Positions 1 through 17,300 of a DNA stretch of 64,000 nucleotides are shown one piece after another. A program made the position numbers and the translations under genes. Source of the DNA: Candidatus Heimdallarchaeota archaeon (GTDB lineage: Archaea; Asgardarchaeota; Heimdallarchaeia; Hodarchaeales; Hodarchaeaceae). The stretch's first letter is position 1. Each line of letters begins with the position of its first letter. The notes under the pieces are model-generated. The model was not told the DNA's origin, did no database searches, and was given only the letters and a program-made list of their open reading frames with translations. The stretch lies in NCBI GenBank assembly GCA_020353515.1, contig CP070695.1:928299-992298 (forward strand), read 5' to 3'.

Positions 1-1461
1 TTGAAAAAGCGTTCTCCACATCAAGAAACACGTGATTTATTAGTTCAATATCTTAAAGCTGATTATCAAACCCTTTGTTTCACACTATCCCGTCGAATGG
101 CTGAACTTGTTTCAATGTGGGTAAAACAAGATCTGAAACATCATAAACTGGATTATGAACAGGTGATGTCCTATCGTGCAGGTTACCGTCCCTTAGAACG
201 TCGTGAAATTGAAAATAAATTACGTAATCGTGAAATTCAGGCTGTTGTATCCACAAATGCTCTTGAAGTAGGGATAGATATTGGAAATTTGGACGCTGTT
301 TTATTATCAGGTTTCCCTGGAACTATAATTTCCACATGGCAGCAAATGGGCCGTGTTGGGAGAACACTACGACCTTCATTAGCAACTTTAGTTCTGTTTG
401 AAGATCCCCTGCAACAATTTCTTGGAAAACATCCTGATTACTTCCTCGAAAAAAACCCTGAGAATGCAATCATTGACCTACATAACCCCTATATACTGAA
501 AGGGCATATTCTTTGTGCTGCAGCAGAACTTCCTTTGACCTTAAACGAAATTCAACAGATCTGGGGAGATCAAGGGAAAATCATCGCTCAAGAATTAAGA
601 CAGGAAGAATTGGTCAAGATTGTCCCTGCAGGATTAACGAGCAGTTCCCCTAAAAGACCTGCATCCGTGATAAGTCTTAATACCGCATTTACAGATATTA
701 TTGAAGTTTTGATTCAAGGATCTCTTTTGGAAACCATGAGTATTCCTCAAGCTTATCGTGAAGCTCATGATGGAGCCATTCTCATCCACCAAGGGGAGAC
801 CTACTTGGTTGAAAAACTAGATCTCAAAAGAAAGAAGGCAATTGCGTCACCAATTGAAGTTGATTACTATACAGATGCATTGAGTACTTCAGAAGTTACA
901 GTATTAGAAACACTCTTATCGAAGGATATTGGATTTCCTCTTTTCTTTGGAGAAGTAAAAGTCACAGAAGAGTATCATTCCTTCCGAAAAAAGACGTATG
1001 ATGAAGTTCTTGAGATTTTACCGCTAAATTTACCCTCTCTTACATTCATAACAAAAGCTCTTTGGATTGAAATTCCCGATGAAATTGTCAATCGTATCCA
1101 ACACGATGCACTTGATTTTCCTGGTGGAATTCATGCAATGGAGCACGCCACTATTGCATTGTCTCCAATGTATGCAATGTGTGACCGATGGGATATTGGT
1201 GGGACTTCTTATCCCTGTTTTCCTGTTGACGGAAAAGCAAAGGTGTTTATTTATGATGGGTTTCCTGGAGGAATTGGGATTTCTGAACAACTTTTCAAAA
1301 AGTGTGATAGTCTTCTCAAAAACGTCTTGGATCACGTTAAGGAATGTGAATGTAAAGAAGGCTGTCCTAGCTGCGTGCAATCACCTAAATGCGGTAATGA
1401 AAACTTCCCATTGGATAAGAGTGTCGCTATTCTTATGTTAGAAGAATTATTAAAAAAATAG
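1..1461 (+). CDS. Superfamily-2 DEAD/DEAH-type helicase, C-terminal part (RecA2 domain plus DUF1998/MZB zinc-binding domain; MrfA/YprA/Hrq1-like); the 5' end lies outside the window
   Basis: The ORF is open at the window start. It has helicase motif V-like STNALEVGIDIG and motif VI QQMGRVGR. The C-terminal Cys cluster CECKEGCPSCVQSPKCGN is typical of DUF1998. Confidence 0.85.
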   Translation: MKKRSPHQETRDLLVQYLKADYQTLCFTLSRRMAELVSMWVKQDLKHHKLDYEQVMSYRAGYRPLERREIENKLRNREIQAVVSTNALEVGIDIGNLDAVLLSGFPGTIISTWQQMGRVGRTLRPSLATLVLFEDPLQQFLGKHPDYFLEKNPENAIIDLHNPYILKGHILCAAAELPLTLNEIQQIWGDQGKIIAQELRQEELVKIVPAGLTSSSPKRPASVISLNTAFTDIIEVLIQGSLLETMSIPQAYREAHDGAILIHQGETYLVEKLDLKRKKAIASPIEVDYYTDALSTSEVTVLETLLSKDIGFPLFFGEVKVTEEYHSFRKKTYDEVLEILPLNLPSLTFITKALWIEIPDEIVNRIQHDALDFPGGIHAMEHATIALSPMYAMCDRWDIGGTSYPCFPVDGKAKVFIYDGFPGGIGISEQLFKKCDSLLKNVLDHVKECECKEGCPSCVQSPKCGNENFPLDKSVAILMLEELLKK

Positions 1462-1532
1462 CAATATTTGTCAATATTTTTCTAATCCATTATAATATTA
1501 GTTGATAGTACTTACTCAAGGAACCATCAACT

Positions 1533-2171
1533 TTGATTGTTTATGCTGTCTTTGTTATCTCGAATGAAGGACGAATCCTCCTATCTGAGAATTTCCATTC
1601 CTTAGAGGGAATAACTGATGACGTTTTACTTGGAGAAGTAATTACAGCAATACAAGACTTATCTAGCGAGACAAAAAAAGCAAATACAGAGATTTCATCT
1701 GTTAAGATTAAGGGCCTATCTTATCATATTAGATCCTTTGGTCTTTTTCGGATAGTTTTAGTAACAGGAATTCCTAAGAATCCAGAAGAAATCATGCAGG
1801 TCTTAGGATTTCGATTCATCAATGAATATGGAAATGTTTTACTGCAAACAGATTATAATTTATCCATCTTTGATCAGTTTAAAGAAACTATCAAGGAATT
1901 TTTTCCAGATGAGAAAATTATTGATAAAATTACATTAATCAAACCCAGAATGAAATTGGGGGTGGGAGAAATTTTTAACTTACCTACTCATCTCCAAAAA
2001 ACAGCACTGGCATTGATTTCATTACAACAAGCTTCAATTGATGATATTATTCAAGAGAGTGGCGATACTCTTACTAATGTAGAATGGAACTTGACCAGTC
2101 TAGAAAGTATGGGATTTATTGGGAAAAAGCAAGTCAATGGTAAAATTATTTATTTCTCTTCAATTAAATGA
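1533..2171 (+). CDS. Longin/roadblock-like N-terminal domain + C-terminal winged-helix protein, paralog 1 of 3
   Basis: TTG start. The N-terminus is MIVYAVFVISNEGRILLSENF followed by GLSYHIRSFGLFRIVLVT, an alpha/beta pattern. The C-terminus LQKTALALISLQQASIDDIIQESG...NLTSLESMGFIGKK...IYF looks like a wHTH. It is clearly paralogous to 3128-3781 and 13641-14276. Confidence 0.6.
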   Translation: MIVYAVFVISNEGRILLSENFHSLEGITDDVLLGEVITAIQDLSSETKKANTEISSVKIKGLSYHIRSFGLFRIVLVTGIPKNPEEIMQVLGFRFINEYGNVLLQTDYNLSIFDQFKETIKEFFPDEKIIDKITLIKPRMKLGVGEIFNLPTHLQKTALALISLQQASIDDIIQESGDTLTNVEWNLTSLESMGFIGKKQVNGKIIYFSSIK

Positions 2172-2286
2172 ATCTTAATGATCTAGTTGATGATTATTTC
2201 CCCAAAAAATGCATACTATCAAGATATTATTAAATTAAAAAAAAGTTTGATTTTTAAGGGGATTGTAATCACAATGTCACAGTTGG

Positions 2287-3144
2287 GTGATCAATGTGTC
2301 ATTGAGAAGTTTAGCAATTTTGTCCCATAAAGGCGGTGTTGGCAAATCTAGTATAGCTGTGAACATTGCTGTTCATTTAGCTAAAATAGGCAAGAGGGTT
2401 TGCTTATTAGACAATGATTTTCATGGTCCAAGCATCATGACTTTTTTTCAAAGGGATCCAGAGGTTAACTGGCTGAATGAATATTTGCTTGGTAAAGAAA
2501 CCATGGATGATTGTTTACAAAATGTGTCTCCTACCCTTGGGTTATCAGGAAAATTATGGGTAGGGTATGCGGATCCTACTCCTGAATCAATTCAGAATCT
2601 TATCAGAATCGATCAGAAAACATCAATCAAAATGCTTCAAAACCTGATCAAGCTGAAGAAAGGGTTTAAAGAGAAGCCTTATGAGATTGAATACTTAATT
2701 GTTGACTGTTCTCCTGGAACAGGATATTCCACTGTCAACGTCATGCTTGCCACTGATTCAAGCCTTTTTATTGTGAAGTTAAGTAATGCGGATCTTTTTG
2801 GTACTTCTCAAATGATCGCTGGCCTCTATAAACAGCTAAAAAACAGATCTTTAGTCTTAGCGAACCTTATTCCTAAAGAAGCAATTCAGAGTGACACAAG
2901 AAAGCAAGACATCCAGAAATTAATTGAAAAAAGATTCACCGTAGACATTGGAGATAAAATAGTAGAGTTTCTAGGATGGATTCCGACAGATTTTGAACTC
3001 CAAAACATCGAATTCCAAGAGGCTGTTAAACATCTACAAGGACAGGAGTCATCACGTATAATCTACACTTTGGAACAACCAGAACATGTTTTTTCAACGA
3101 CTCTAATTGATCTGATCCCCACATTATTTGGAGAGGTGGGATAG
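2287..3144 (+). CDS. MinD/ParA/Mrp(NBP35)-superfamily P-loop ATPase with deviant Walker A; no Mrp-type CxxC Fe-S motif visible
   Basis: Deviant Walker A SHKGGVGKSS (nt 2329-2349 core), Mrp-like LLDNDFHGPS, and Walker B region YLIVDCSPGTG. GTG start. The stop TAG at 3142-3144 overlaps the next gene. Confidence 0.8.
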   Translation: MINVSLRSLAILSHKGGVGKSSIAVNIAVHLAKIGKRVCLLDNDFHGPSIMTFFQRDPEVNWLNEYLLGKETMDDCLQNVSPTLGLSGKLWVGYADPTPESIQNLIRIDQKTSIKMLQNLIKLKKGFKEKPYEIEYLIVDCSPGTGYSTVNVMLATDSSLFIVKLSNADLFGTSQMIAGLYKQLKNRSLVLANLIPKEAIQSDTRKQDIQKLIEKRFTVDIGDKIVEFLGWIPTDFELQNIEFQEAVKHLQGQESSRIIYTLEQPEHVFSTTLIDLIPTLFGEVG

Positions 3145-3781
3145 TACGATCATATACGCGGTATATGTATTAACGGAAGATGGTAAAACACTCATTTCAG
3201 AGCATTTTCAATCGACTGAAGATATTCCAAATGAAGTTTTACTTGGGGGACTATTTACCGCGCTCCAAAGCATGGCTAAAGATATGGCTAAACAAGACAC
3301 CGAGATGAAAAGTGTCGAGATAGAAGGGCTCTCCTATCATATCAGATCGTTTGGTTTAATTCGTATCGTGTTAGTAACGAATGTACCAAAGACTCCCGAA
3401 GATATTATTCAAACCTTGGGATTACGCTTTATAAATGAATATGGAGATATCTTAACGCAAGCAGAATTTAATTCCAGTGTTTTCAGTCCTTTTAAAGATA
3501 CTATACAGGATATTATGAAACAATTAGTAGGTTATGACGAATCAAAATCAATAAAACCTAGTAAACGATTGAATACTGGGGAAATCTTCTCGTTACCACA
3601 CCACTTACAGGCAACAGCTTTAGCATTAGTAACATTAGAAGAGGGAACAGTTTCTGATATTGCTCTAGAAAGTGGCGAAGAAACAGAGATTATTGAAAAG
3701 AACCTCGCAACTCTGAAAGAGAAGGGATTCATTGGTACAAAAATGCGAAAGAAAAAAACCGTCTATTTCTGTACAATTTAA
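3128..3781 (+). CDS. Longin/roadblock-like + winged-helix protein, paralog 2 of 3
   Basis: STIIYAVYVLTEDGKTLISEHF, IEGLSYHIRSFGLIRIVLVT, RFINEYG and a C-terminal wHTH LQATALALVTLEEGTVSDIALESG...LKEKGFIG...VYF. The TTG start overlaps the upstream ATPase stop by 17 nt. GGAGAGGTGGG precedes the conserved core. Confidence 0.6.
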   Translation: MERWDSTIIYAVYVLTEDGKTLISEHFQSTEDIPNEVLLGGLFTALQSMAKDMAKQDTEMKSVEIEGLSYHIRSFGLIRIVLVTNVPKTPEDIIQTLGLRFINEYGDILTQAEFNSSVFSPFKDTIQDIMKQLVGYDESKSIKPSKRLNTGEIFSLPHHLQATALALVTLEEGTVSDIALESGEETEIIEKNLATLKEKGFIGTKMRKKKTVYFCTI

Positions 3782-4005
3782 GCCATTTATCTGATTTAAA
3801 AAGGGCTTAGCTCAATATTTGAATTCCTTTATTGTAATTTCATAGACATTTGAAAAGCTATAAAAAGAAGAAAACTTAACGTATTTGAGAGGGTTTATGC
3901 AATTAGCTTTGGTGGGAATTAATAAGAGATTAATAAGGGCGGAGTAGACATAAAATGAGCCTAAAGACACTTTCAGGTATATTAAACGATTTTTTTCTAA
4001 ACGTT

Positions 4006-4010
4006 AGGAG
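4006..4010 (+). promoter_or_regulatory. Shine-Dalgarno-like AGGAG 9 nt upstream of the ATG at 4020
   Basis: The sequence is acgttAGGAGttcggattcATG. Confidence 0.35.
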
Positions 4011-4019
4011 TTCGGATTC

Positions 4020-7000
4020 ATGAGAAAAGTCAGAAGAGGATTATTAATACTCTTGCTATTAATTTATAATATTAATTATTTTCAGGGGTTTCTATCCCAA
4101 AGTCTCAACGACCAAGAGCTTAATGAGGAGTTACAACCCCTTAAACGAACAATACCTAGACTGACTTCACAAGACTCAAACCAAATAACATCGGAAGAAC
4201 TCAAAAATATTGTTGAAGAAAGCTTAAAAGGGTTTGTTGGAGGTTTCTTAGAAAATAAAGGTCAAAAAAATGAAGCTGTATATTATTACGCTGAAAGTTC
4301 ACAGATGGGTGTTGGATTTAGTATAAGTGAGATAAGATTCATTATTTCAATTACAGATGATCTAGAAAAAGATAATCCTCAAGAAGAACTTTTAACTGGG
4401 AAAAAACCAACCTATACCTCTTTCACTTTAGAGCTTCTGGGGAGTAATGAAGTGATTCCTATTGCACAAGATCCAACAGGAAGTTTTAGTAATTTCTTTT
4501 ATGGATCAGATGAAATAAGATGGGCTATCAGTAGTCCATATTATGACAAAATAGTATATTATAACATCTACGAGAAAATTGACTTAGTTTATATGCTGAA
4601 GAAGGGCCAACTAAAATATGAGTTCTTTGTTCACCCAGGGGGAAATGTTAAAGATATCAGACTTCATTGGACTGGTCCTATCTCGCTGGAGCTGCTTAAC
4701 GCTGGAATTAATATAAAAGTGCACTGTGATGACATGACCGATTCCTTGTCAGAAGTCAGTTTTATTGATACAAAACCGATATTTTTCCAGTCTTTTGAAC
4801 GCAAGAATCCCATCTTAGGATCATTTGAATTTTTGGGACCGACCACCTATGGATTCTCATTACCTTGGTATGATTTAACAGAAATCTTAATCATTGATCC
4901 AACATTAAGCTATTCCACGTATGTGAGTGGAAACAATCATGATATAGGAAAAGGAATAACTATTGATGGAGCGGGCAATGCATATGTCACGGGATATACT
5001 TTTTCTTCTAATTTTCCAACAAAAAATGCGTATGATGCTACTGGGGGTGGTAATCCGTATGATAGGGATGTATTTGTGTTCAAGCTAAACAGCACGGGGA
5101 ATGGTTTAATCTATTCCACTTATGTGAGTGGAAATAATGATGATTATGGGATAGGAATCGCTATTGATGGGATGGGTAATGCATATGTCGGGGGTGATAC
5201 TCTCTCAACTGATTTCCCAACAGTAAATCCGTATAATGCTACTGGGGGTGGTAATCAGAGTTATAGGGACGTATTTGTATTCAAGTTAAATAGTACAGGA
5301 AACGGTCTGGATTATTCTACCTATGTGGTTGGAAATAATGATGATTTTTTTAAGAAAATAGCTATTGATAGTTTAGGTAATGCGTATGTCACGGGGCATA
5401 CATTCTCTACCAATTTTCCCGCAATTAATGCGTATAATGCTACTGGTGACGGTAACCCGAGTTATAGGGACGCATTTGTGTTCAAGCTAAACAGCACGGG
5501 GAATGGTTTATTGTATTCCACGTATGTAGGTGGTAGTAACAATGATTGGGTCAATGGAATCGCTATTGATGAGGTGGGTACTGCATATGTCACAGGAACC
5601 ACTTATTCTACCGATTTTCCAACTGTAAATGCTTATAATGCTACTGGGGATGGCAAGGTAGGAACCGCTGATGCTTTTGTGTTTAAGTTAAACAACACAG
5701 GGACTAGTTTATTTTATTCCACCTATGTGAGTGGGAGTAATTATGATACTGGTGTTGGAATCGCTATTGATGGGGTGGGTAATGCATATATCACGGGGGA
5801 AACTACTTCTACTGATTTTCCAACAATGAATGCTTATAATGCAAGCCATAGTGGTGCATTTAATGATATTATTGTATTCAAATTAAACGGCACGGGGAAC
5901 GGTTTGGTGTACTCTACGTATGTGGGTGGAAATAACGATGACCGTGGTCTGGATATAACTATTGATAGTTCTGGTAATGCATATATCACGGGATACAGTT
6001 ATTCTACGGATTTCCCAACAGTCAATGCTTATAATGATACTGGTGATGGTAGCACATCCTACTCTGATGTTATAGTATTCGAGTTGAACAGTACTGGTAA
6101 TGGTTTAACGTATGCAACCTATGTTAGTGGAAGTAATAGTGATTGGGGCCACAGTATAGCTATTGATAGTTCGGGTAGTGTGTATATCACTGGTCAGACT
6201 TATTCTACCGATTTTCCAACCGTAAATGCCTATAATTCGACTGGTGACAGGAATATAACTACCTTGGATGTGATTGTGATGAAACTAAAATTTTATCATG
6301 ATCCTATCTACATTGACAATAATGCAGATTTTACAACTCTAGGCTTTCCAGGAGATGGTACTCTTAGTAACCCCTATCGTATTGAAGGTTATAAGTTTGT
6401 CAACTCAACCACAACCCTGATCCACATTAAAGACACGACCTCTTACTTAACAATTCGAGATAATTGGTTGGATGGTATTAGTGGAACCAATGATGGCATC
6501 TTTCTAGAGAATGTTATTAATGGAGTAATCGAATACAACACGATTCTTAATTCTTATTGTGGTATTAACCTCTACTCCAGCTCCAATAACAATATTTCCC
6601 ACAATACTGTCTTCAACAACTCATTGGTTGGTGTATCTATTAATTCAAGTAGTAATTTTAATACTCTGTTCAACAATTTTGTCTACAATAATTCTAATCA
6701 TGGGATCATTGTGTTCTATTCCTCACACAGTAATATTTTAGCAAATAATACCATCACTAAAATCACTCTATATCATGGCATTTCAGTTGGTTATACGAGT
6801 TATGATAATACTCTTGCGAATAATACCATTTATAATATCCCCAACGTTGGTATTTACCTAGAATCAGCCAGTTTCAACATTATAACAGGAAACATCATCC
6901 ATCAGAATGGTAAACATGGAATTGCCCTCTATCCATCGAGTAACAATAATACAGTCTATAGAAACACAATCTACAATCATACAATATGGTCCACCCCCTG

Positions 7001-10000
7001 TGGCATTTATCTTCAAGCTGCTAACTATAATACCATTTTCTGTAATAACATCAGTGATAATGGATATGGAATCTTCTTTAATACAAATTCTGACGAGAAT
7101 ATAGCCTACTTGAATAATTTTGAAGGTAATACCAACTGGGAAGCATATGACATTGGTGCGGGGACTATTTTCCACCACAATGGGATTGGAAATTATTGGG
7201 GAAGTGCTTACGCTGGGTCTGATGACGACAATGATGGCTTAGGGGATTTACCATTTAGTTCAGGGATATTTGGCAATCAAGATCCTTATCCATTGATGTT
7301 TAAGGTAGAGTGTATTGAAGGTAATCGGACTGTGAACATTGAAATCTACCAAGATATGACCATTGTACTGATGGGAGATTTGACTGTTGCATCTTCTGGA
7401 AATTTAACTCTTCAGAATGTTATGGTTACGACGAGGGGAAGTTCTTATCCACAGAACATTAATGATGTCGATTCAGGTAATATTATTCTAATGGAAAATT
7501 GTACATTTTACTATATTAATATCACACTTTCAACTAATTTAACGATTTCATCACCGAATTATTTAACCTTTCATAATGTTACTCTTTGGATGAAATGTTC
7601 TTTCGTTGGCCAATTCCGAATTGAGGTTGAGAATGGAGGAGAACTAACCATTGAAACAAGCTCTACAATAACTGCTTTCAATCCTACTTACGCTTGGTAC
7701 CTCAAAGCCAATCCTGGTAGCACTCTTAGATTAACAAACAGTACATTCTGTTATGCAGGATACGATTGGGGTACTCCTTCTGGGATTTGGGTTAACACTA
7801 ATGGAACACAGATTCTCAACTGTACCATTCGAAATAACTTCATTGGATTATATTTTTTTCAAGCTACCAGTTCTCTGTGTGCCAAAAATCTCATATACGA
7901 TAATACATACGATGGCATCTGGTTTTATTCCTCCAGTTATAATACCATTGTTAACAATACCATCTATGATAACAACCGAATTGGTATTAACCTTGTTTTG
8001 TCTAGTAACAGTAATAATATTAAAAACAATAAAATCTACAATAATTTTGGTTACGGAATTGACCTAGAGACCTCCAGCACTGATAACAATGTGAGTTGGA
8101 ATAAGTTCATTGGTAATAATGTTGGGGGGGCTCAAGTTAAAGATTACCCTACAGGTAATAGTTTCACATACAACTACTGGGATGACTGGACTAGTCCCGA
8201 TACTAATCATGATGGAATTGTTGATAATGTCTACTACATTGATGGTGCTGCTGGTAATACAGATCCCTACCCCTTAATATATCCCTACACACCTCACGCA
8301 ATAATTTTCATTGATAATGAAACCGATTTTGTCACTTTAGGTTTTCCAGGCCTGGGAACAATCTCCAATCCGTATATCATTGAGGAATACTTCATTAGTG
8401 ATATCGCGACAAGTCTAATACATATTGAAAACGTAACAGCTTATTTCATCATTCGCAGTAATCTGTTGATCGGAAAAACTGGAGGGAATTGTGTCAATAT
8501 TGTCAACACTACACATGGATTGATTATTGATAACATAATTCAGAACACTAATGTCGGTATAAACGTGTTTGAATCTTCCGACAATACTATTTCTAACAAC
8601 ATTGTGACTAATAATAATTTCGGAGTAATATTAACTAATAGTTCCTCTTTAAATACAATATACAACAATATGATTTTCAATAACTCTGTATATGGCGTAA
8701 TAGTTTCATTTTCCAGTGATAACAATAATGTTTCTAGTAATCTCCTCTACAACAACACATATTCAGGTATTTCTCTACTGTACTGTATTTATAATAAAAT
8801 CTTTAATAATACTATCTTCAATCAATTCGAGGCCTCTCCATTAGGGAACAGCATTACATTAAGCCTCTATGCAAACAATAATACAATTTCGAACAATACA
8901 ATTTATAATAACTCGAATGACGGTATCTGGGCGAATTCTACATCTTTCAATATTATCATTTACAATTCAATATTCAATAATACTAATTGTGGAATCTATC
9001 TCGCTTATTCTAATAATATCAATCTCACTAGCAATTTTATCTTTAATAACTCCAATGACGGTATATATTCTGGAACAAGTAGTTACTGTAATATTTCTCA
9101 GAATAAAGTCTATACTAATAGCTTTGATGGTATTAGGTTGCAAAATACAGCCTATACTACTGTAAACAACAATACAATTATAGGTAACTCAGAATATGGT
9201 ATAAATCTAGATTCTGCTACACATGATAATATCATAATTTGGAACGACTTCATTAACAATAATCCCATAGGAGGAGAGTCTCAGGCATATGACGTAGGAT
9301 CGCTCAACAATTTCACCTATAACTATTGGAATGACTGGACAACCCCAGATATCGATTCAAATGGTATTGTAGATGATCCTTATCTCATTGATGGAGGCAA
9401 CTTCGATCCATTTCCGTTAACTCTTTCCTTCTCTCAACCCCACCAACTTTTAATTCCGCTTATCATCTCTCCAATTGGAGGAACAATACTTAATGGAATA
9501 GTAACTATTAGATGGAATGAAGCAACTGATTCCTTAGATCATCAAGTTACATATACTATATATTATTCTGAGGACGCAGGTACCACCTGGGTGCTAATAA
9601 GATCAGTTACAGTAACTTCTATTAGTTGGGATACTCGAATTCGTAGAAATGGTACCGATTATCTGATTAGAGTAAATGCTACTTGTTCTGAAGGTTTAAT
9701 GACTTTTGATGTCTTAGACACAACGTTAACCATTCAAAATCCACCTATTGAAGAACCAATTGTCATTATAAGGAACGCGGACTTTGAATCCTTGGGGTTC
9801 CAGGGAGCCGGAACAGAGGACAATCCGTATGTAATAGAAGGATACTACTTTGCTGATGATTCTATGGTCTTAATTGATATTCAACATACTGATGTCCACT
9901 TCATTGTCCGTAACAATTATCTGAATGGTATCAGTGGTGAATTCACTGGTGCCAATTTCTTCAATGTTACTTATGGAGTTATTGAGGATAATATCATCTA

Positions 10001-11336
10001 TAACTGCCATGATGCAATATTTATTGATGACTCCCAAAACTGTGGAGTTTTCAATAACCTTATTTATTCTAATTCTGAAAATGGGATTTTCTTACACGCC
10101 TCTAATTACATCAATATTTTAGCTAACACAATTCGTTTCAATGGAGCTAATGGGATTTTTCTACTCAACTCTAACGATAGCACGATTTCGGATAACATTA
10201 TTTATGGGAACGGGGACACAGGTACAGGAAGCGGGATCGGTGCGAGTCTCCAAGCTTCCAATCGAGGGAATGGCATCTTCCTCGATCCTGCAGACAACAA
10301 TAAAATTACAAATAATACTATTCATAGTAATCTCGAAGATGGAATTTATTTATTCGAGTCAGATGAGACTCTTATCTCCAATAATACTATCAATGATAAT
10401 GGGGGTAATGGAATCACTCTCGAAGATTCAGATGAGAATACCATTTCGGATAATATTATTTATGGAAACGGGGACACGGGAACTGGAAAGGGGATCGGTG
10501 CGAGTCTTCAAGCTTCCAATCGAGGGAATGGTATCTTCCTCGATCCAGCAGACGACAATATCATTAGTAATAACGAAATTTATGAGAATGAGGTAAATGG
10601 GATCTATATCTTGGAAACAAAAACCACCCAGATTTTTAGCAACTGGATCTTTGGAAACGGATGGAACGGTATTTTTCTAGAATTGTCAAATCTAAATAAA
10701 ATTTTTGACAATTTCATTGGTGGACTTGCTTTTATTAGTATGAACGGAATAGGTGCATCAGTTGGTACAATAGTAAAGCAAGAAGCCTCTAATCGTGGGA
10801 ATGGAATCTTTCTTGAGGTTTCCAGTGAAAACAACATTTCTAAAAATGATATCTCGAACAATACAAACTATGGAGTGATTCTTGATGAGGATTCCAGCGA
10901 TAATATGATCCAATGGAATGATTTCTTTGGTAATAACCCTAATGGGACTTCCCAGGCGTTTGATGATGGATTAAATAACGAATTCTCCTACAATTACTGG
11001 GATGATCATGATAATTCAGATACGAATGGTGATGGCGTAGCTGATAGTCATTACAAAATTAATGGGGATGCGAAAAACTTTGATCAGTCTCCAATGGCCA
11101 CACCTGATGGAGAATTGATACCATCTCCTCCTTCGCCTCCAGATCCGTTATTGTTACTCCTATTTTTCCTCCTAATCCTTAGTTTTGGTGGAATGGCTCT
11201 TTCTTATGTCTATCGTAAGCGTTTGAGATTATGGATCAAAAAAAGGACTCGGAAACGTACTATACAAGAGTATGAATCCCTGATCGAAAAAGCGGAAGAA
11301 CTTGCTCGAGCTTGGGAAAGAGACATTAAGGATTAA
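4020..11336 (+). CDS. Giant (2438 aa) membrane-anchored cell-surface protein: N-terminal signal/anchor, 7 SBBP-type beta-propeller repeats, 4 NosD/PbH1 right-handed beta-helix modules, one Fn3/Ig-like insert, C-terminal TM helix and a basic cytoplasmic tail
   Basis: The N-terminus is MRKVRRGLLILLLLIY. Seven repeats have the form YSTYVxGxNxDxGxxIAIDxxGNAYxTGxTxSTDFPTxNAY. There are many NxxIxxN PbH1-type turns. Four module ends have the form YNYW(D/N)DW..PD..(D/N)GI(V/A)D..Y.IDG...(D)P(Y/F)PL. The C-terminus is PSPPSPPDPLLLLLFFLLILSFGGMALSYVYRKRLRLWIKKRTRKR. Confidence 0.8.
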   Translation: MRKVRRGLLILLLLIYNINYFQGFLSQSLNDQELNEELQPLKRTIPRLTSQDSNQITSEELKNIVEESLKGFVGGFLENKGQKNEAVYYYAESSQMGVGFSISEIRFIISITDDLEKDNPQEELLTGKKPTYTSFTLELLGSNEVIPIAQDPTGSFSNFFYGSDEIRWAISSPYYDKIVYYNIYEKIDLVYMLKKGQLKYEFFVHPGGNVKDIRLHWTGPISLELLNAGINIKVHCDDMTDSLSEVSFIDTKPIFFQSFERKNPILGSFEFLGPTTYGFSLPWYDLTEILIIDPTLSYSTYVSGNNHDIGKGITIDGAGNAYVTGYTFSSNFPTKNAYDATGGGNPYDRDVFVFKLNSTGNGLIYSTYVSGNNDDYGIGIAIDGMGNAYVGGDTLSTDFPTVNPYNATGGGNQSYRDVFVFKLNSTGNGLDYSTYVVGNNDDFFKKIAIDSLGNAYVTGHTFSTNFPAINAYNATGDGNPSYRDAFVFKLNSTGNGLLYSTYVGGSNNDWVNGIAIDEVGTAYVTGTTYSTDFPTVNAYNATGDGKVGTADAFVFKLNNTGTSLFYSTYVSGSNYDTGVGIAIDGVGNAYITGETTSTDFPTMNAYNASHSGAFNDIIVFKLNGTGNGLVYSTYVGGNNDDRGLDITIDSSGNAYITGYSYSTDFPTVNAYNDTGDGSTSYSDVIVFELNSTGNGLTYATYVSGSNSDWGHSIAIDSSGSVYITGQTYSTDFPTVNAYNSTGDRNITTLDVIVMKLKFYHDPIYIDNNADFTTLGFPGDGTLSNPYRIEGYKFVNSTTTLIHIKDTTSYLTIRDNWLDGISGTNDGIFLENVINGVIEYNTILNSYCGINLYSSSNNNISHNTVFNNSLVGVSINSSSNFNTLFNNFVYNNSNHGIIVFYSSHSNILANNTITKITLYHGISVGYTSYDNTLANNTIYNIPNVGIYLESASFNIITGNIIHQNGKHGIALYPSSNNNTVYRNTIYNHTIWSTPCGIYLQAANYNTIFCNNISDNGYGIFFNTNSDENIAYLNNFEGNTNWEAYDIGAGTIFHHNGIGNYWGSAYAGSDDDNDGLGDLPFSSGIFGNQDPYPLMFKVECIEGNRTVNIEIYQDMTIVLMGDLTVASSGNLTLQNVMVTTRGSSYPQNINDVDSGNIILMENCTFYYINITLSTNLTISSPNYLTFHNVTLWMKCSFVGQFRIEVENGGELTIETSSTITAFNPTYAWYLKANPGSTLRLTNSTFCYAGYDWGTPSGIWVNTNGTQILNCTIRNNFIGLYFFQATSSLCAKNLIYDNTYDGIWFYSSSYNTIVNNTIYDNNRIGINLVLSSNSNNIKNNKIYNNFGYGIDLETSSTDNNVSWNKFIGNNVGGAQVKDYPTGNSFTYNYWDDWTSPDTNHDGIVDNVYYIDGAAGNTDPYPLIYPYTPHAIIFIDNETDFVTLGFPGLGTISNPYIIEEYFISDIATSLIHIENVTAYFIIRSNLLIGKTGGNCVNIVNTTHGLIIDNIIQNTNVGINVFESSDNTISNNIVTNNNFGVILTNSSSLNTIYNNMIFNNSVYGVIVSFSSDNNNVSSNLLYNNTYSGISLLYCIYNKIFNNTIFNQFEASPLGNSITLSLYANNNTISNNTIYNNSNDGIWANSTSFNIIIYNSIFNNTNCGIYLAYSNNINLTSNFIFNNSNDGIYSGTSSYCNISQNKVYTNSFDGIRLQNTAYTTVNNNTIIGNSEYGINLDSATHDNIIIWNDFINNNPIGGESQAYDVGSLNNFTYNYWNDWTTPDIDSNGIVDDPYLIDGGNFDPFPLTLSFSQPHQLLIPLIISPIGGTILNGIVTIRWNEATDSLDHQVTYTIYYSEDAGTTWVLIRSVTVTSISWDTRIRRNGTDYLIRVNATCSEGLMTFDVLDTTLTIQNPPIEEPIVIIRNADFESLGFQGAGTEDNPYVIEGYYFADDSMVLIDIQHTDVHFIVRNNYLNGISGEFTGANFFNVTYGVIEDNIIYNCHDAIFIDDSQNCGVFNNLIYSNSENGIFLHASNYINILANTIRFNGANGIFLLNSNDSTISDNIIYGNGDTGTGSGIGASLQASNRGNGIFLDPADNNKITNNTIHSNLEDGIYLFESDETLISNNTINDNGGNGITLEDSDENTISDNIIYGNGDTGTGKGIGASLQASNRGNGIFLDPADDNIISNNEIYENEVNGIYILETKTTQIFSNWIFGNGWNGIFLELSNLNKIFDNFIGGLAFISMNGIGASVGTIVKQEASNRGNGIFLEVSSENNISKNDISNNTNYGVILDEDSSDNMIQWNDFFGNNPNGTSQAFDDGLNNEFSYNYWDDHDNSDTNGDGVADSHYKINGDAKNFDQSPMATPDGELIPSPPSPPDPLLLLLFFLLILSFGGMALSYVYRKRLRLWIKKRTRKRTIQEYESLIEKAEELARAWERDIKD
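4905..6290 (+). repeat. Seven tandem ~60-aa SBBP-type beta-propeller repeats (coding), also partly repeated at the DNA level
   Basis: The motifs SYSTYVSG, IYSTYVSG, DYSTYVVG, LYSTYVGG, FYSTYVSG, VYSTYVGG and TYATYVSG are each followed by (I/V)xIDxxGxxY(V/I)(T/G)G and (D/N)FP(T/A)xN(A/P)Y. The DNA block gtgttcaagctaaacagcacggggaatggttta recurs near 5080 and 5480. Confidence 0.75.
10185..10301 (+). repeat. Intragenic direct repeat, copy 1 (117 nt) inside the giant surface-protein gene
   Basis: Encodes ISDNIIYGNGDTGTGSGIGASLQASNRGNGIFLDPADNN. By eye it has about 11 mismatches in 117 nt against copy 2, with an offset of 258 nt (86 codons). Confidence 0.8.
10443..10559 (+). repeat. Intragenic direct repeat, copy 2 (117 nt)
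   Basis: Encodes ISDNIIYGNGDTGTGKGIGASLQASNRGNGIFLDPADDN. A third, degenerate copy (GIGASVGTIVKQEASNRGNGIFLEVSSEN) follows near 10750-10850. Confidence 0.8.
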
Positions 11337-11531
11337 ATAGTTTTCACGAAAAGTTCGAATTGAAGTGGGATTCATCCCTCTTTTTCACCAATTTCTTTTC
11401 TTGGTATAAAAACAGAATCATGATATTCATTTTTCCTTATTCAAAAAAAATCACTTTTAATTAGTTAATGAATCAGACATTTTCCAGAATAGGAAAATTA
11501 TTAATTGGTATCGTTGTTAAGTATATGAAGT

Positions 11532-13421
11532 TTGAGGTTCTTTTTTTTGCCTACTCAAAAAATACATGACCAGACAGATGTACAATCACAAGTTTCCACG
11601 CTTAAGGCTGCGAAGGATCTTCTTTTCTTAGGTAAGTTCATTGATGCTTTACAAAATATAGACCAATTAGAAAAAATAGATTCTAAAGAAGATTCTTTAA
11701 AGATAGAGAGCCAGATTTATAAAAGTCTTATCTTGACTCGTCTTGGGAATAATGTTGAGGGATTGAAACTTGCTGAAAAGGCATTGAAAGAGACTGTTCG
11801 AATTAAAAATCAATCTTTAGAGATCGCTGCTTATATTTCAAAGATTACTGCTCTTCTAGACACCGGAGACTTTGATAACAGCCTAGAAGCAATAGAAGAA
11901 GCTGAAAGATTACAGATATCAATCAATAAAATAGGAGAACATGATTTCATAGCAAGAAATGCAACCTTAAATTATCTAAAAGGTAAAGCCTTTAGAAAAA
12001 AGGGCGATCTAAATCGAGCTATCAAACATTTAGAGCACAGTTTGACTATTCAACAAGATTTAGGAAATAAATTCGAGATTGCTGATGCTCAAAATGATCT
12101 GGGAATCATTCACGCGACAAAGGGAAATTTAGATATGGCTCTCATTTCCCTTGACCAAAGTCTCATGGTATTTCAGGAATTAGATTTAAGACAACAAATT
12201 ATTAAGTCTACGAATAATCTTGGTATGATTTATGGTATAAAGAGAGATCATAACAGGGCTTTAGATTATTATCAGAGGAGCTTAGCTCTAAGTGAAGAGA
12301 TTGAAAATAAGCATTTTACTGCAGCTCTGTCCCTGAATATTGGTTTAATTCATCGTCAAAAAGGAGATCTTACCTCTGCATTAGAATTCTTTGAGAAAGC
12401 AAAAATTGTGTTTGAAGAACTTGAACACGAAAGAGAATTAGCAACCTGTTTCAATAATATTGGAGCTGCTTATAATATTTTAGGGGAATTTAACCAAGCA
12501 TTAAGCTTTTTACAAGAAGGATTAAAGTTAGCAGAAAAATTTGGAGATAAGAGGGAAATCTCGACGAGTCTTCAGAATATTGCCAATGTACACGAAATAC
12601 GGGGTGATTTTGATACAGCAATAACTTATTACAAGAAAAGTTTAGAAATTTCTGAAGAAATAGGGAGTAATTATGATATCGCAGATTTACTCTATAATCT
12701 GATTGTTGTATCCATTTCTGCTGGATTTAGTGAAAATGCGAACTTCTATTTAGAAAAATTGTCTGACATCAACAATGAAGAGAAAGACGATTTAATTAAT
12801 CAAAAATACCGATTATCAAAAGCGATTGTATTGAGAACAAGTGAAAGGTTAATTAAAAGAGCTGAAGCTCAACAATTATTCCAAGATCTCGCTCAGGAAG
12901 AAATTCTCGATATAGAGCTTACCATTTCAGCCTTACTAAACTTGTGTGAGCTATTGATCTTGGAATTAAAGACCTCTGGAAGCGAAGAAGTGTTAAAAGA
13001 GGTTAAAATAATATTAGAACGACTTTTCGAGATGGCTGAAGAGCAACATTCTTATTTATGGCTTACTGAAATCTATTTGCTTCAAGCAAAAACATCCCTC
13101 CTTGAGCTGAACATCAGTAAAGCTCAAGATTTAATAAACCAAGCAATGGTTATTGCGGAAATGAAAGGATTAAATCAGCTCGAGAAAACGATCTCTTTGG
13201 AACATGACTTGATTTTTTCTCAACTTAATAAATGGAATAAAATTATTGAACAGAAACCTTCTGTGAGCGAGGTTCTAGAGTTAACCCAGTTTGAACAGTT
13301 TCTTGAACGAATGGTCTTTAAAAAAATCTATTGTAGAGAAGAAGAAATTCAAGAATATGCAGAGAAAGCCCAAATGTTAGTAGAAAAGTGGGAGAGAGGA
13401 GTAAGCGTTAAGGATGTGTAA
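11532..13421 (+). CDS. Tetratricopeptide (TPR) repeat protein, 629 aa, apparently cytosolic
   Basis: About 34-40-aa repeats recur, of the type A..N.LG.IY...GD...AL.Y...SL.I.EE.G (for example NNLGMIYGIKRDHNRALDYYQRSLALSEEI and NNIGAAYNILGEFNQALSFLQEGLKLAEKF). TTG start. No TM segment. Confidence 0.75.
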   Translation: MRFFFLPTQKIHDQTDVQSQVSTLKAAKDLLFLGKFIDALQNIDQLEKIDSKEDSLKIESQIYKSLILTRLGNNVEGLKLAEKALKETVRIKNQSLEIAAYISKITALLDTGDFDNSLEAIEEAERLQISINKIGEHDFIARNATLNYLKGKAFRKKGDLNRAIKHLEHSLTIQQDLGNKFEIADAQNDLGIIHATKGNLDMALISLDQSLMVFQELDLRQQIIKSTNNLGMIYGIKRDHNRALDYYQRSLALSEEIENKHFTAALSLNIGLIHRQKGDLTSALEFFEKAKIVFEELEHERELATCFNNIGAAYNILGEFNQALSFLQEGLKLAEKFGDKREISTSLQNIANVHEIRGDFDTAITYYKKSLEISEEIGSNYDIADLLYNLIVVSISAGFSENANFYLEKLSDINNEEKDDLINQKYRLSKAIVLRTSERLIKRAEAQQLFQDLAQEEILDIELTISALLNLCELLILELKTSGSEEVLKEVKIILERLFEMAEEQHSYLWLTEIYLLQAKTSLLELNISKAQDLINQAMVIAEMKGLNQLEKTISLEHDLIFSQLNKWNKIIEQKPSVSEVLELTQFEQFLERMVFKKIYCREEEIQEYAEKAQMLVEKWERGVSVKDV

Positions 13422-13640
13422 TTCCACCCATCAGATGTATATGACAATTTAATGGCTATTTCTTTTCCCAAATTATTTTCATTACACAAAATAAATCTAA
13501 TCTGATTAATAAAGCAATATTTAAATTATTCAGCTTCCATCATATACAGGATTAATAATTAGTAAAACAGAGTTATCAATGCAATCAAGTGTTTAAACCA
13601 GTTTATTTGGCTAATAAAAGCTTGGTTTAGGTGAAATAGC

Positions 13641-14276
13641 ACGATTGTTTATGCAATTTATGTTATATCTGATGATGGTCGGACTATTTTATCAGAAAGT
13701 TTCCAGTCCAGTGAAGATTTTCCAGATGCCATCTTACTCGGGGGACTGCTTACTGCTCTTCAAAATCTGACTATTGAGATGACTCAAGCCGATTCTGAGA
13801 TGCAGAGTATTGAAATTGAAGGTCTCTCATATCACATCAGATCATTTGGTTTTTTTCGACTCGTTCTTGTGACTGATGTTCCTAAAACTCCAGAGGACAT
13901 CATTCAAATGGTAGGTTTCCGTTTTATTAAACAGTATGGCGAAGTACTAATGGACTGGGACTCTAATCTAAGCATCTTTGCTCCTTTTCAAGACACCATT
14001 CGTGAAATTATTCAGACTGAGACGAGTACCGATGAATCCAAATCAATTATGCCCAGTAAGAGGCTATCTACAGGGGAAATTTTCCAACTTCCCTCTCGTC
14101 TTCAAAAGACTGCTTTGGCACTGGTTTCTTTAGAACAGGGTACAGTAAACGAAATTTCGGAGGAAAGTGGCGAAAAAAAGCATGTAGTGAGAAGAAATCT
14201 GAACTCTCTACATGAAATGGGATTTATTGGAAAAAAACAAAAGAAGAGAGCAATAACATATTTTTGTTCAATTTAA
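13641..14276 (+). CDS. Longin/roadblock-like + winged-helix protein, paralog 3 of 3. The conserved N-terminus lies upstream of the first ATG, so the gene needs a non-canonical start (ACG 13641 / ATT 13644) or is 5'-truncated
   Basis: The ORF track starts at ATG 13779, but the same frame is open from 13635. That stretch encodes TIVYAIYVISDDGRTILSESFQSSEDFPDAILLGGLLTALQNL, which is homologous to the N-termini of paralogs 1 and 2. AGGTGA at 13629-13634 sits just upstream. There is no in-frame ATG, GTG or TTG between the TGA at 13632-13634 and 13779. Confidence 0.55.
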   Translation, partial: TIVYAIYVISDDGRTILSESFQSSEDFPDAILLGGLLTALQNLTIEMTQADSEMQSIEIEGLSYHIRSFGFFRLVLVTDVPKTPEDIIQMVGFRFIKQYGEVLMDWDSNLSIFAPFQDTIREIIQTETSTDESKSIMPSKRLSTGEIFQLPSRLQKTALALVSLEQGTVNEISEESGEKKHVVRRNLNSLHEMGFIGKKQKKRAITYFCSI

Positions 14277-14335
14277 ACTCATTGTTGACTGAATCCAGAC
14301 ATTTTTATCCGTATTTTTCAGTAAATGATCTATGA

Positions 14336-17300
14336 CTAAATTTGACCTCCACACATACTGCAAAATTTAGCTCCAGGAATAATAACTACTCCACAATTGT
14401 GGCAAAATTTTCTTACTTCAGGTGTTCTCTCAGAAGTTGAAGGATAATATCTTGTGGGGTAAGTTTCCATCACTGAATAAGGCGAGGTTCTATAGCTAGT
14501 TCTCTTTCGAATGAGAATTGCAGCACCACTAATGATTGCAACAGCTAAAACTCCGAAGATAAGAAGAAAGATAGGATCTATATTTATTGATGTACTGACC
14601 AAAAAGAAAACTATTTCAATGTCATAATTCCCTTGAGTATCACGGACGAAGATTAGAAGAACGAATAGTTGATTATTTATCTCCAGCTGATACCCCTCAA
14701 AATCAGGTATCGGGATTGGGTTAGTAGGGACGGTAAATGTCCCAATGTTTTCACTTGAATTTGTAGATGACTGGGGAATTTCAAAATGATCTAAAACTGT
14801 TCGATCAGCATACCAAAAATAAAGGTGAATAAATTGCAGATGCATTATAAATTCATCACTATTGTCATCTTGTCCGATTAACCTTAGTTCAATAGTATCC
14901 CCAGGATTCCAAGTAGGTATATCTGATACAAGTTCAATCTCACGATAATAACTTAGTGGATTCCCCCCAATCGTGCTTCTTACGTCAAGTGATGGAACAG
15001 GATCTGGGATAAAGAAGCTCCCTCTCTCGATTTTCAATAAAATCGAATCATTTGATCTTATTTTACTCCAGACTTGGATGTCGAAGGAATAATAACCAGT
15101 AGAGTAATTTTCAGGAATAGACCAAGAAAGAGTCTGCTGGGTACCAGAGTTATTTAATAATTCGGTTTCTAAGATAATTTCTTTCATTGCCTTAAGAGGT
15201 GGAATTATCACCTCTAGCGTATCTTCAAACTGACTAGAAATTAACAAGATAGATTGAACTGAACTAGATTCTGAATGAGTTAATGTAAAATTTATTCCTT
15301 GATCGATAATCGAATCGTATGAGTCTTCCTCCGCCCAAGATGGGATAAGGACATTTGAAGAAGCAGAGAAATCTATTTGGATGTCTTTTACCTCAGGGAG
15401 AATAACTATATCAAAAATATCGAATTCTTTTAGAATCATTGTTCCGTTCTTGATTGAAACAGAGATTCGTTGATTTTGATTTTCTCCTAAATCAACTACC
15501 AAACGATGATGTTGTAATGTTGTATTGTAGAGAAATGAGTTTTCGAGAGGTGAACTACCATTAGAAAAAGAGAGTACAATAGAAAGGGGTGATTGATCAG
15601 AATAGTAAGCTGATATTTCTAACTGGTGACTTGGGGTTATTTGTGAATTGACAACCAATCCAGTTTCAGGTTTTAACCAATTAAATACGTTTTTTGTAAA
15701 ATTTTGACCATCATTTGTTGAAAGAAATGAAGAAGAAAACCAATATTCGCTTCCCAAAATTAATACCTTGCCTTTACTGACAGGTTCATAGGCTGCTGCC
15801 ACTAAATTAGATTGGTTATCGATCCATGCCTGGTACTTAAGATTGGAGGCATCTTGATCCACTTTAAAGGCTGTTCCCTGTTTAAAAGGCATGAGATCGA
15901 CTTTTTCAAAAAATGGATTCCCTATCTCCCATATTATTTCTTTCTCAGGATCAAGAGGAATTGGATCACGATTTCTACCATCATCTACGTAATCTACAAG
16001 ATCTAGCCGATCAAAAAAATCTAAAGGAATTCCAAGTGTTTTTACTACTCGAGAATAGGGATCTGGATTGAAGTATGGGAATACAGAGGTGATAAGAAGA
16101 ATTGATCCGTTTTGATTGTGAAATTTAGAAATATAATTTAATTCCCTCTCAGAAATAGGATATTCTAAATCAGTAAGAACCAAAATATCGTTTTGAGACA
16201 TATTTTGCCAGGTCAAGGCTGTTTCATATTGATTCATGTCAAACTTTAAATTCGAAACCATGAATTCATCCAATTCCCGATAGTTGAAAAATGCTGAATC
16301 ATCTTTGCCAGTATAAAATGTATCCCAGTATAATTTAGATTTGGGATTAGTTATCGTAAGACTGATTGGAATTGAGTAAGTAGTGTCAAGAAATGTATAA
16401 TCAAGACTTCCTTGGTAATTTCCTGGAATACTATCTAATGGGATCGAGATATTCAAATATTTCTCAAAATAACCAGCGGTGGATTGCACATGATTTGTAC
16501 TATTAAAAATGATAAATTTTTTAATTGAATCTGAAATGTTCCAACTGATAGTACCTCCTATTCCAGTTAGAAAGGACAACTTGATCTGGGTTTGATCTCC
16601 TGGAAATGTGATTCGTTCAGCAAATTCAATAGGTTTATCACTCCTCGCTTTAGGTAGAGAAGATATTAAATCAAAACCTCCAATCTGTTCTGATTGTTCT
16701 AAAATAGTAGAAGCCATTCCAACATTGATTAATCCACTTCCTTGGGTATACTGAGATTCTTGTAAATCAACAGCTGTTTCCTGAAGAGCTGCACGAATCG
16801 CGGAAGGAGTTATTTGGGGATATTGATGTTTTAATAGCGCAACTGCTCCACTGACGACAGGTGTTGCCATACTTGTACCTGAAAGCGAGATATAATCCCC
16901 TAATTCAACACCTACGATTGATTCGTACGCGAGTTCTAATACACCTTCAGGGGCTAAAGGAGCATATATTTGGGTACCTGGAGCAACAACGTCAGGATCA
17001 ACTTTGTAATCATACGATGGACCACGACTCGAATATGACGCGACATTGGAACTTCCATTTGTAGCACCCACTGTAATAACCTTTTTTGATGAAGCTGGGG
17101 AGCCAATGGAAGCCAATTTATCATCAGAGCCTTCATTACCTGCTGCAACAACCACTACAATTCCAGCATCCACGGCTTTATCGACTGCAAGGGTTAATTC
17201 ATCTCCTGATCCCCAAGGAGAGGATCTTCCAAAACCAATGGAAATTGAGATAACATCAACTTCTTGATGGATTGCTTCATCAATTGCTGCAAGCATTACA

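Follow-up and report, generated by a model that had tools for sequence, protein, structure and literature searches.

Longin and winged-helix proteins encoded as a conserved pair with a MinD/FlhG-like ATPase in Asgard archaea

The DNA considered here, called the window throughout, is a 64-kb stretch of a Candidatus Heimdallarchaeota genome (contig CP070695.1; G+C content about 35%), which carries on one strand three genes for a small two-domain protein, the adaptor, and a gene for a deviant Walker A ATPase related to MinD and FlhG. The initial annotation had placed these genes in a larger module that also included a giant surface protein and a TPR protein. When related loci are compared, the conserved unit is smaller than the cluster first described: it is made of two genes, the ATPase and an adaptor. 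The adaptor belongs to an uncharacterised family of proteins of about 210 residues, detected so far only in Asgard archaea, that combine an N-terminal domain of predicted longin fold, a flexible linker with a conserved P-x-K-x-L peptide, and a C-terminal domain predicted to be a winged helix. Few 'eukaryotic signature' families have expanded as much in Asgard archaea as the longin and roadblock proteins, whose partners and functions are, to our knowledge, almost entirely unknown. The present family is worth emphasizing as a longin family with one fixed and, by all appearances, translationally coupled partner, a MinD/FlhG-like ATPase, and it provides a defined protein pair that is open to binding, ATPase-stimulation and localisation assays.

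The comparison set consisted of the window and 39 related loci carrying the family (L001 to L039), drawn from genome, metagenome and assembly collections, with a metagenome scan based on a narrower alignment (A2) yielding 11 loci. All stop-to-stop open reading frames (ORFs) of the loci were scanned against hidden Markov models (HMMs) of the N-domain and of the C-domain and against the ATPase sequence. Forty-five full-length family genes were found in this way, and 33 of them directly follow an ATPase gene of the same strand, either overlapping it or starting no more than about 25 nucleotides (nt) past its end. The remaining 12 comprise three genes without upstream sequence, seven supernumerary copies located within such a cluster or next to it (paralogs 1 and 3 of the window and the orthologs of paralog 3) and two truly solitary copies, one with no adjoining ATPase (L008) and one amid unrelated metabolic genes (L009). 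The adjacency to the ATPase, first noticed in a single genome, is thus conserved for 33 of the 42 informative genes, and it is retained at 22-29% identity to paralog 2 (L037-L039), in loci where the ATPases are 27-32% identical to that of the window. The junction between the two genes reads TAA-ATG, ATGA, or stop, one base, start, and a Shine-Dalgarno-like site of the GGAGGTG type lies within the 3' end of the ATPase gene; judging from this abutment or overlap of start and stop codons, ATPase and adaptor are translationally coupled. The pairwise distances between ATPases follow those between adaptors (r = 0.953 for 25 non-redundant pairs, paralogous pairs from one metagenome-assembled genome (MAG), L012 and L013, being included; 0 of 2000 permutations reached this value), so that duplication and divergence affect the operon as a whole. 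Several paralogous pairs may be present in the same genome or sample, as with L012 and L013 in that MAG and L001, L029, L033 and L034 in one sample.

The genes of this family in the window, for which the ORF coordinates and the clustering on the forward strand were correctly given at the outset, are arranged as follows.

1533-2171, + strand: paralog 1, longin and winged-helix adaptor of 212 residues with a TTG start (ORF; family HMMs)
2237-2275, + strand: promoter-like block (alignment of ATPase upstream regions of close orthologs)
2287-3144, + strand: MinD/FlhG-like deviant Walker A ATPase (Pfam, AlphaFold2 model, Foldseek, family alignment)
3128-3781, + strand: paralog 2, the cognate adaptor coupled to the ATPase (probable start ACG 3146-3148)
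13641-14276, + strand: paralog 3, second adaptor copy (predicted ACG start, or the ATT after it; family alignment and HMMs)

Aligned end to end, the three paralogs are 50-59% identical, and about 90 columns are invariant, among them those of GLSYHIRSFG, VLVT, the block P(E/D)xI.Q..G.RFI..YG and GEIF.LP..LQ.TALAL, a similarity beyond chance in which the common blocks noticed earlier are found again; paralog 1 matches the family HMMs with E = 2e-40 for the N-domain and E = 4e-26 for the C-domain. A profile search returned 376 cluster representatives of the family, and all named homologs of the adaptor and of the ATPase are from Asgard genomes, for the most part MAGs that bear the label Hodarchaeales or Heimdallarchaeota. 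The AlphaFold2 model of paralog 2 (37 homologs in the alignment, mean predicted local distance difference test score (pLDDT) 80.4) displays the two-part layout that had been proposed, with one domain at residues 9-134, another at residues 150-216, and a low-confidence linker at residues 135-141. The modelled N-domain has the order beta-beta-alpha-beta-beta-beta-alpha-alpha (strands 9-16, 21-26, 61-65, 68-74 and 78-84; helices 35-52, 91-109, 116-119 and 122-134), with no helix ahead of the first strand. Its top matches when searched with Foldseek against the PDB, at probability 1.0, are Sec22b, sedlin, zeta-COP, sigma-adaptins and VAMP7, the template modelling (TM) score on the target being 0.67 both for Sec22b (1ifq) and for sedlin (2j3w). 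The initial annotation had left the choice between a longin and a roadblock fold open. Topology and best matches argue for the former, and the N-domain is accordingly described here as a predicted longin; a roadblock/LC7 (MglB-like) fold was rejected because the topology lacks the initial helix of a roadblock, the model opening with a strand at residue 9 and closing with two helices, and MglB is ranked below the longin structures.

At the level of sequence the N-domain is much more elusive. For the three paralogs of the window, Pfam and NCBIfam gave no N-domain match at all, not even to the longin models; distant family members come near threshold (P0220 with 24.8 bits against 26.1 for Fuz_longin_1, P0227 with 20.2 against 25 for Sybindin), and sub-threshold scores are found in distant relatives for Longin and Robl_LC7 as well. 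A PDB profile search with the adaptor recovered only winged-helix proteins and spurious monooxygenases, with no sequence-level link between the N-domain and a solved structure. The winged helices matched by the C-domain in this search were those of TFE, MecI, MarR and ArsR. Paralog 3 scores 27.1 bits against the Pfam TrmB family, above the cut-off of 25.6, paralog 2 (21.9) and paralog 1 (13.6) remaining below. In the model the C-domain has a pLDDT of about 90 and consists of three helices (158-170, 175-182 and 186-198) and then a wing formed by a beta-hairpin (strands 202-207 and 210-216), and the winged helix put forward from the sequence alone is upheld as a prediction by structure and profiles alike. 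No Pfam or NCBIfam family describes the fusion of a longin with a winged helix, and all named database homologs are called hypothetical protein, in keeping with the earlier remark that this is not a described family; no description of the pair emerged from a search of the literature on Asgard archaea for longin together with winged helix-turn-helix, ParA or MinD, although the family may already have an asCOG number. The modules are also seen apart from each other near some pairs: L034 codes for a 165-residue longin-only protein, divergent from an ATPase gene (5348-5845, - strand), and small ORFs with the winged-helix module only are present in L014 (1993-2307) and L024 (10073-10333).

The ATPase belongs to the MinD/ParA superfamily of deviant Walker A ATPases. 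It contains the motifs KGGVGKS, LLDNDFHGPS and VDCSPGTG, and in an alignment of 40 homologs SHKGGVGKS, D.DFHGPS and D[CS]SPGTG are conserved, with Walker A, A' and B invariant. Its matches to Pfam ParA, AAA_31 and CbiA exceed the cut-offs, and its AlphaFold2 model (pLDDT 89.9) retrieves FleN/FlhG first (target TM 0.80), then MinD and Soj, with FleQ-FleN complexes among the top structural matches. The proteins of the family terminate with a conserved LIPxLFGE tail. As had been noted, the protein flanked by paralogs 1 and 2 has no CxxC, its only cysteines being C39, C76 and C141. An iron-sulfur carrier of the Mrp/NBP35/ApbC type was rejected on this ground and by family score (MrpORP 72 bits against a cut-off of 450, ApbC 49 against 348), and so was MinD proper, the archaeal MinD model TIGR01969 giving 43 bits against 202; the ATPase also stays far below the curated cut-offs for ParA. 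This ATPase family is greatly expanded in these archaea, and every named protein among its best 120 hits is from Asgard.

How may the two proteins work together? We hold with moderate confidence that the pair forms an ATP-driven switch of the MinD/ParA type, to which the family contributes the adaptor or regulator subunit. In the search of representatives, the linker and winged-helix module was also met behind other N-terminal domains, some of them without an assigned family: AbrB and leucine-rich repeats (LRR) precede it in P0150, while in P0131 and P0171 it is joined to a polytopic membrane domain with a MarR-like winged helix. Two AbrB(MazE-like)-LRR proteins of L033 end in this family C-module (E = 3e-28 and 4e-24) and adjoin two tandem ATPase paralogs, the gene coordinates being 21-1238, 4555-5751, 6001-6852 and 7035-7889. 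When the C-terminal module was used by itself for a profile search (A5), the result was one 101-residue fragment. Because the C-module, with its P-x-K-x-L linker and its LP..LQ.TA start, is kept when the N-domain is swapped, as in the AbrB-LRR proteins of L033, these two architectures suggest that the ATPase has it as its invariable partner, the N-domain being the part that varies and faces the client.

The mechanism can be outlined in conditional terms. The ATP-bound dimer of the ATPase would bind the adaptor, most likely via its linker and winged-helix module; the lysine of the linker may stimulate ATP hydrolysis, as peptides of MinE and ParB do in their own systems; and the longin domain, which is a dimerising platform in other systems, would couple the switch to a client. 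Mixed dimers are common among longin proteins, and the tandem paralogs 2 and 3 could assemble in this way. The analysis itself establishes the modelled folds, the adjacency of the two genes, the coupling of their start and stop codons and their co-divergence; physical contact, the module that makes it, stimulation of the ATPase and the client are what we infer from the pair, and a number of observations pull in the other direction. Adjacency and co-divergence would equally follow from co-regulation, or from inheritance of the operon as a unit. No invariant, potentially catalytic residue and no conserved arginine can be found across the broad adaptor family. No ATPase gene precedes the membrane-type variant P0171 on its short contig of 3.3 kb. 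Residues 268-280 of the ATPase, which make up its C-terminal helix, are hydrophobic and none of them is basic, the hydrophobic moment being about 0.2, and MinD-like membrane binding via this modelled helix appears not supported. In the clade of the window, finally, the third helix and the lysine-rich wing of the winged helix carry charges of +1 to +9, and a DNA-binding role is possible for the adaptors of that clade.

This last point, together with the order of the genes, leads to a different view of the pair, that of a cassette for DNA partition or positioning, comparable to ParAB or to the archaeal SegAB, in which the ATPase would sit on the nucleoid while the winged helix would bind centromere-like sites and stimulate the ATPase. 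An ATPase gene followed by a small partner is the order typical of parAB and segAB operons, and here an ATPase gene is followed by a small winged-helix gene with start and stop coupled. Soj/ParA structures are among the top matches of the ATPase, but FleN/FlhG and MinD outrank them. The basic third helix and wing of the clade, and the winged helix of paralog 3, which with a net +4 is more basic than those of paralogs 1 and 2, have to be set against a winged helix that is acidic in the broad family, with a mean net charge of -2 over 61 diverse members and of -1.5 for the third helix. In one Hodarchaeales clade the pair is found directly downstream of a NurA-HerA-Mre11-Rad50-helicase string whose last member is of the Hrq1/MrfA type (L001 200-8766; L031 1-6881), yet outside that clade the neighbours are unrelated to DNA metabolism. 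The presence of several paralogous pairs per genome or sample also argues against partition. Scanning of stretches 1400-4100 and 11300-14400 revealed neither repeat arrays nor strong palindromes around the genes, only short matches at chance level, and the partner has no match to ParB or another partition protein in Pfam or NCBIfam, no SegB-specific comparison having been made. We consider a partition cassette improbable. The DNA-binding role given to the adaptors in the initial annotation is thus not established, in spite of the basic wing of the window's clade: the charge pattern makes DNA binding possible for some members, and it is not supported as a property of the family.

The single candidate DNA site bears on a further proposal, namely that the adaptor is a transcription factor, with a longin domain that senses, in the manner of the GAF domain of CodY, either a ligand or a protein, a winged helix binding operators, and an ATPase acting as a modulator or anti-activator in the way FleN acts on FleQ. 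Upstream of the ATPase, the block 2237-2275 contains an A-run, a TATA-like element ATTTTTAA (2250-2257) and, between this box and the ATPase start, a 14-nt palindrome ATTGTAATCACAAT (2262-2275), all of which are conserved in an alignment of the window with L001-L005 and L015; the block could be a promoter or an operator. It is however kept in close orthologs only, and its conservation may reflect their relatedness. FleN provides the best matches of the ATPase, including FleQ-FleN complexes, and CodY, which joins a GAF domain to a winged helix, is among the full-length Foldseek matches of the adaptor, but with low TM-scores of about 0.25. FleQ is an AAA+ enhancer-binding protein, unrelated to the adaptor. 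The TrmB-type match of paralog 3 above the Pfam cut-off would fit a regulator of transcription, whereas across the family the residues exposed on the third helix vary and are for the most part acidic. This proposal seems to us improbable as well.

The delineation of the adaptor genes required that their translation starts be considered with some care. The family N-terminus is M-I-(I/V)-Y-A, with a first codon that is ATG in most loci and TTG or CTG in a few (CTG at L001:10705 and L012:8013). In eleven genes, all from one Hodarchaeales clade and including paralogs 2 and 3 of the window, the codon at this position is ACG (window 3146-3148 and 13641-13643; L001:10019; L002:4289; L003:8001 and 8862; L004:8019 and 8985; L005:4012; L006:4723; L015:1011). 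For paralog 3 an in-frame TGA (13632-13634) is located two codons ahead of the ACG, and the next start is an internal ATG at 13779; in all five genes of the paralog-3 group this TGA lies, two codons upstream, within an AGGTGA Shine-Dalgarno-like site. Because of this in-frame stop the group has no canonical start that would not remove the first 46 conserved residues, and paralog 3 and its orthologs are predicted to start at the conserved ACG, so that the reading frame and end first assigned to paralog 3 hold, while the start at 13641 is an ACG. In paralog 2, ACG 3146 is placed one base past the ATPase stop (TAG 3142-3144); the overlap with that stop reported in the initial annotation would obtain if TTG 3128 were used, but the orthologs point to ACG 3146, which is probably the start. 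Gene callers therefore truncate these proteins, and the ACG starts explain the numerous truncated database entries of 165-169 residues (for example P0012, P0016 and P0072). Two starts, GTG 2287 and GTG 2296, are candidates for the ATPase; the first is overlapped by a Shine-Dalgarno-like GGGTGA (2285-2290), and the true start is probably GTG 2296, 5 nt after GGGTGA, giving a product that begins MSLRSL... like its orthologs.

Around and between these genes, the window contains the following neighbours.

1-1461, + strand: 3' end of an Hrq1/MrfA-type helicase gene, inside which the stretch opens (Pfam Helicase_C, WHD_HRQ1 and MZB)
4020-11336, + strand: giant surface protein of 2438 residues, outside the conserved core (Pfam, translation)
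11532-13421, + strand: TPR protein of 629 residues with a family-specific C-terminal domain, a variable neighbour (Pfam)
14336-18028, - strand: S8 protease of 1230 residues, a convergent neighbour (Pfam)

The giant protein is composed of DUF7948, SBBP repeats and several NosD/beta-helix blocks according to Pfam, and its translation ends with a hydrophobic segment followed by a short basic tail, in agreement with the membrane-anchored surface protein first described. That it or the TPR protein belongs to a conserved module is not borne out by comparison. Apart from the window, the only locus with these two genes between paralogs 2 and 3 is L006, from a close relative; the giant protein is absent from L001, L003, L004 and L005, where the orthologs of the two paralogs adjoin each other. 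The surface-protein and TPR cassette is a variable insert, outside the conserved unit. In L004 a remnant of 33 residues from the TPR C-terminus (8713-8811) persists between the orthologs of paralogs 2 and 3, which suggests that the cassette was lost there and is not a recent insertion in the window. Within the window, paralog 2 is the cognate partner of the ATPase, paralog 3 is its tandem duplicate, now split from it by the cassette, and paralog 1 is a third copy, decayed or lost in relatives: it is intact in the window only, C-terminal remnants are seen at the same position in L002 (3139-3309) and L005 (1695-1868), and there is nothing at that position in L001, L003 and L004. A remnant of paralog 3 is visible in L015 (2016-2177), and the remnants in L002, L004, L005 and L015 witness turnover in the cluster.

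The full cluster could still be seen as functional, the ATPase and the adaptors positioning or regulating the giant surface protein through the TPR protein, since all these genes are on one strand in the window. The C-terminal domain of the TPR family, ELTQF..(F/L)ER....K(K/I)(L/Y)Y...EE, ends with W-E-(R/K) in the window, L004, L006, L010 and L012, and TPR relatives that are 34-38% identical reside beside paralogous pairs in L010, L012 and L026-L028, accompanied in L026-L028 by a membrane-anchored beta-helix protein; SBBP-repeat surface proteins adjoin the pairs of L035 and L036. We take this recurrence as a lead, not a result: these genomes abound in TPR proteins and large surface proteins, a degree of chance adjacency is to be expected, and the cassette is missing from most orthologous loci (L001, L003, L004 and L005) as well as from most paralogous pairs. 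The tail of the giant protein, TIQEYESLIEKAEELARAWERDIKD (11259-11333), resembles the extreme C-terminus of the TPR protein, EIQEYAEKAQMLVEKWERGVSVKDV (13344-13418). Their common motif, IQEY...EKA...WER..KD, could be a docking or pairing motif and would bring the two proteins together in such a scheme, but it is limited to the window and L006. As a whole we regard a functional role of the full cluster as decidedly improbable. Tentatively, and with more doubt than confidence, we suggest that Asgard archaea, especially Hodarchaeales, use longin adaptors with a MinD/FlhG-type ATPase switch to position or recruit membrane or surface assemblies, with TPR and beta-helix/SBBP proteins as candidate clients; if this were true, longin platforms would already have been coupled to a prokaryotic-type nucleotide-driven localisation machine.

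Longin and roadblock domains are known as platforms for small GTPases (PMC10933270, PMC3521125), and the adaptors might be classical longin-type platforms with the function of a GTPase-activating protein or of a guanine nucleotide exchange factor, the ATPase next door being merely co-regulated. Ras/Arf-like small GTPase genes are indeed encountered three or four genes downstream of the pairs of L035 (10881-11360) and L038 (7776-8708). They are not conserved elsewhere; no small GTPase belongs to the conserved neighbours, the ATPase being the only constant one, and the family has no conserved arginine or other catalytic residue. We find this explanation very improbable.

Other neighbours are worth a short description. 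The S8 protease faces the cluster with a tail, as first noted: a hydrophobic segment near its C-terminus is followed by a Pfam zinc ribbon at residues 1208-1227 (CHNCG...CSMCG), and residues 744-788 have a weak Pfam match to the IFT52 GIFT domain. It is syntenic in L001, L003-L007, L011, L017, L018 and L031, the helicase and S8 neighbours being conserved within one Hodarchaeales clade only, with unrelated neighbours elsewhere. Three loci of a single paralogous subgroup of ATPase-adaptor pairs, L013, L035 and L036, have on the - strand a gene that converges on the adaptor gene (4779-6728, 7485-9404 and 7512-9455, respectively) and codes for about 640 residues with an N-terminal DUF7347/HTH_20 domain. 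A defence system was considered and rejected, PADLOC matches being weak and generic only.

We may now compare the pair with systems already known. The MinD-MinE, FlhG/FleN, ParA-ParB, McdA-McdB and SegA-SegB modules share with it the KGGxxGK[ST] signature and an ATPase with intact Walker A' and B motifs; FleN/FlhG, MinD and Soj are the best structural matches of the ATPase, and the partner gene is immediately downstream and apparently translationally coupled, as in MinD/ParA-type modules. The partner itself is a longin and winged-helix protein, unrelated to MinE, MinC, ParB, McdB or SegB. Unlike MinD, the ATPase has no clear membrane-targeting helix and remains, with its 43 bits, far from the archaeal MinD cut-off of 202, and unlike ParABS and SegAB the pair has no centromere-like repeats nearby (1400-4100, 11300-14400). 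A two-domain layout is shared with CodY, which appears among the full-length Foldseek matches of the adaptor; the TM-score of that match is about 0.25, and the N-domain fits a longin far better than a GAF domain.

In the actinobacterial conservon, CvnB is a roadblock protein, CvnC a DUF742 helix-turn-helix protein and CvnD a GTPase. Both there and with MglA-MglB a protein of the roadblock/longin superfamily and, in the conservon, a helix-turn-helix module are encoded with a P-loop NTPase, as is the case here; MglB structures are among the Foldseek matches of the adaptor, and one member of the adaptor family gives a weak DUF742 match. The differences lie in the NTPase, which is MinD/FlhG-like and not MglA-like, in the predicted fold, a longin without N-terminal helix and not the roadblock of MglB and CvnB, and in the fusion of two modules within one protein, which the conservon keeps separate.

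With Sec22b, VAMP7, sedlin/TRAPPC2 and the sigma- and zeta-adaptin subunits, its best Foldseek matches, the N-domain shares the beta-beta-alpha-beta-beta-beta-alpha-alpha topology, while its identity to the eukaryotic longin proteins is only 11-18%. The two tandem adaptor genes of the window's clade recall heteromeric longin pairs. The subunits NPRL2 and NPRL3 of GATOR1 combine a longin domain with C-terminal winged helices (PMC3521125), and thus resemble the adaptor in joining these two modules; NPRL2/3 is not among the best 50 Foldseek matches listed, nor in the PDB profile search. Surveys of Asgard archaea have described many longin and roadblock families with many lineage-specific fusions (bioRxiv 10.1101/2020.10.19.343400; PMC10933270), and according to one structural study operon context rarely ties these proteins to GTPases (PMC10933270). 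In the present family the switch linked to the longin is an ATPase of the SIMIBI class and not, as for the longin proteins of eukaryotes, a small GTPase.

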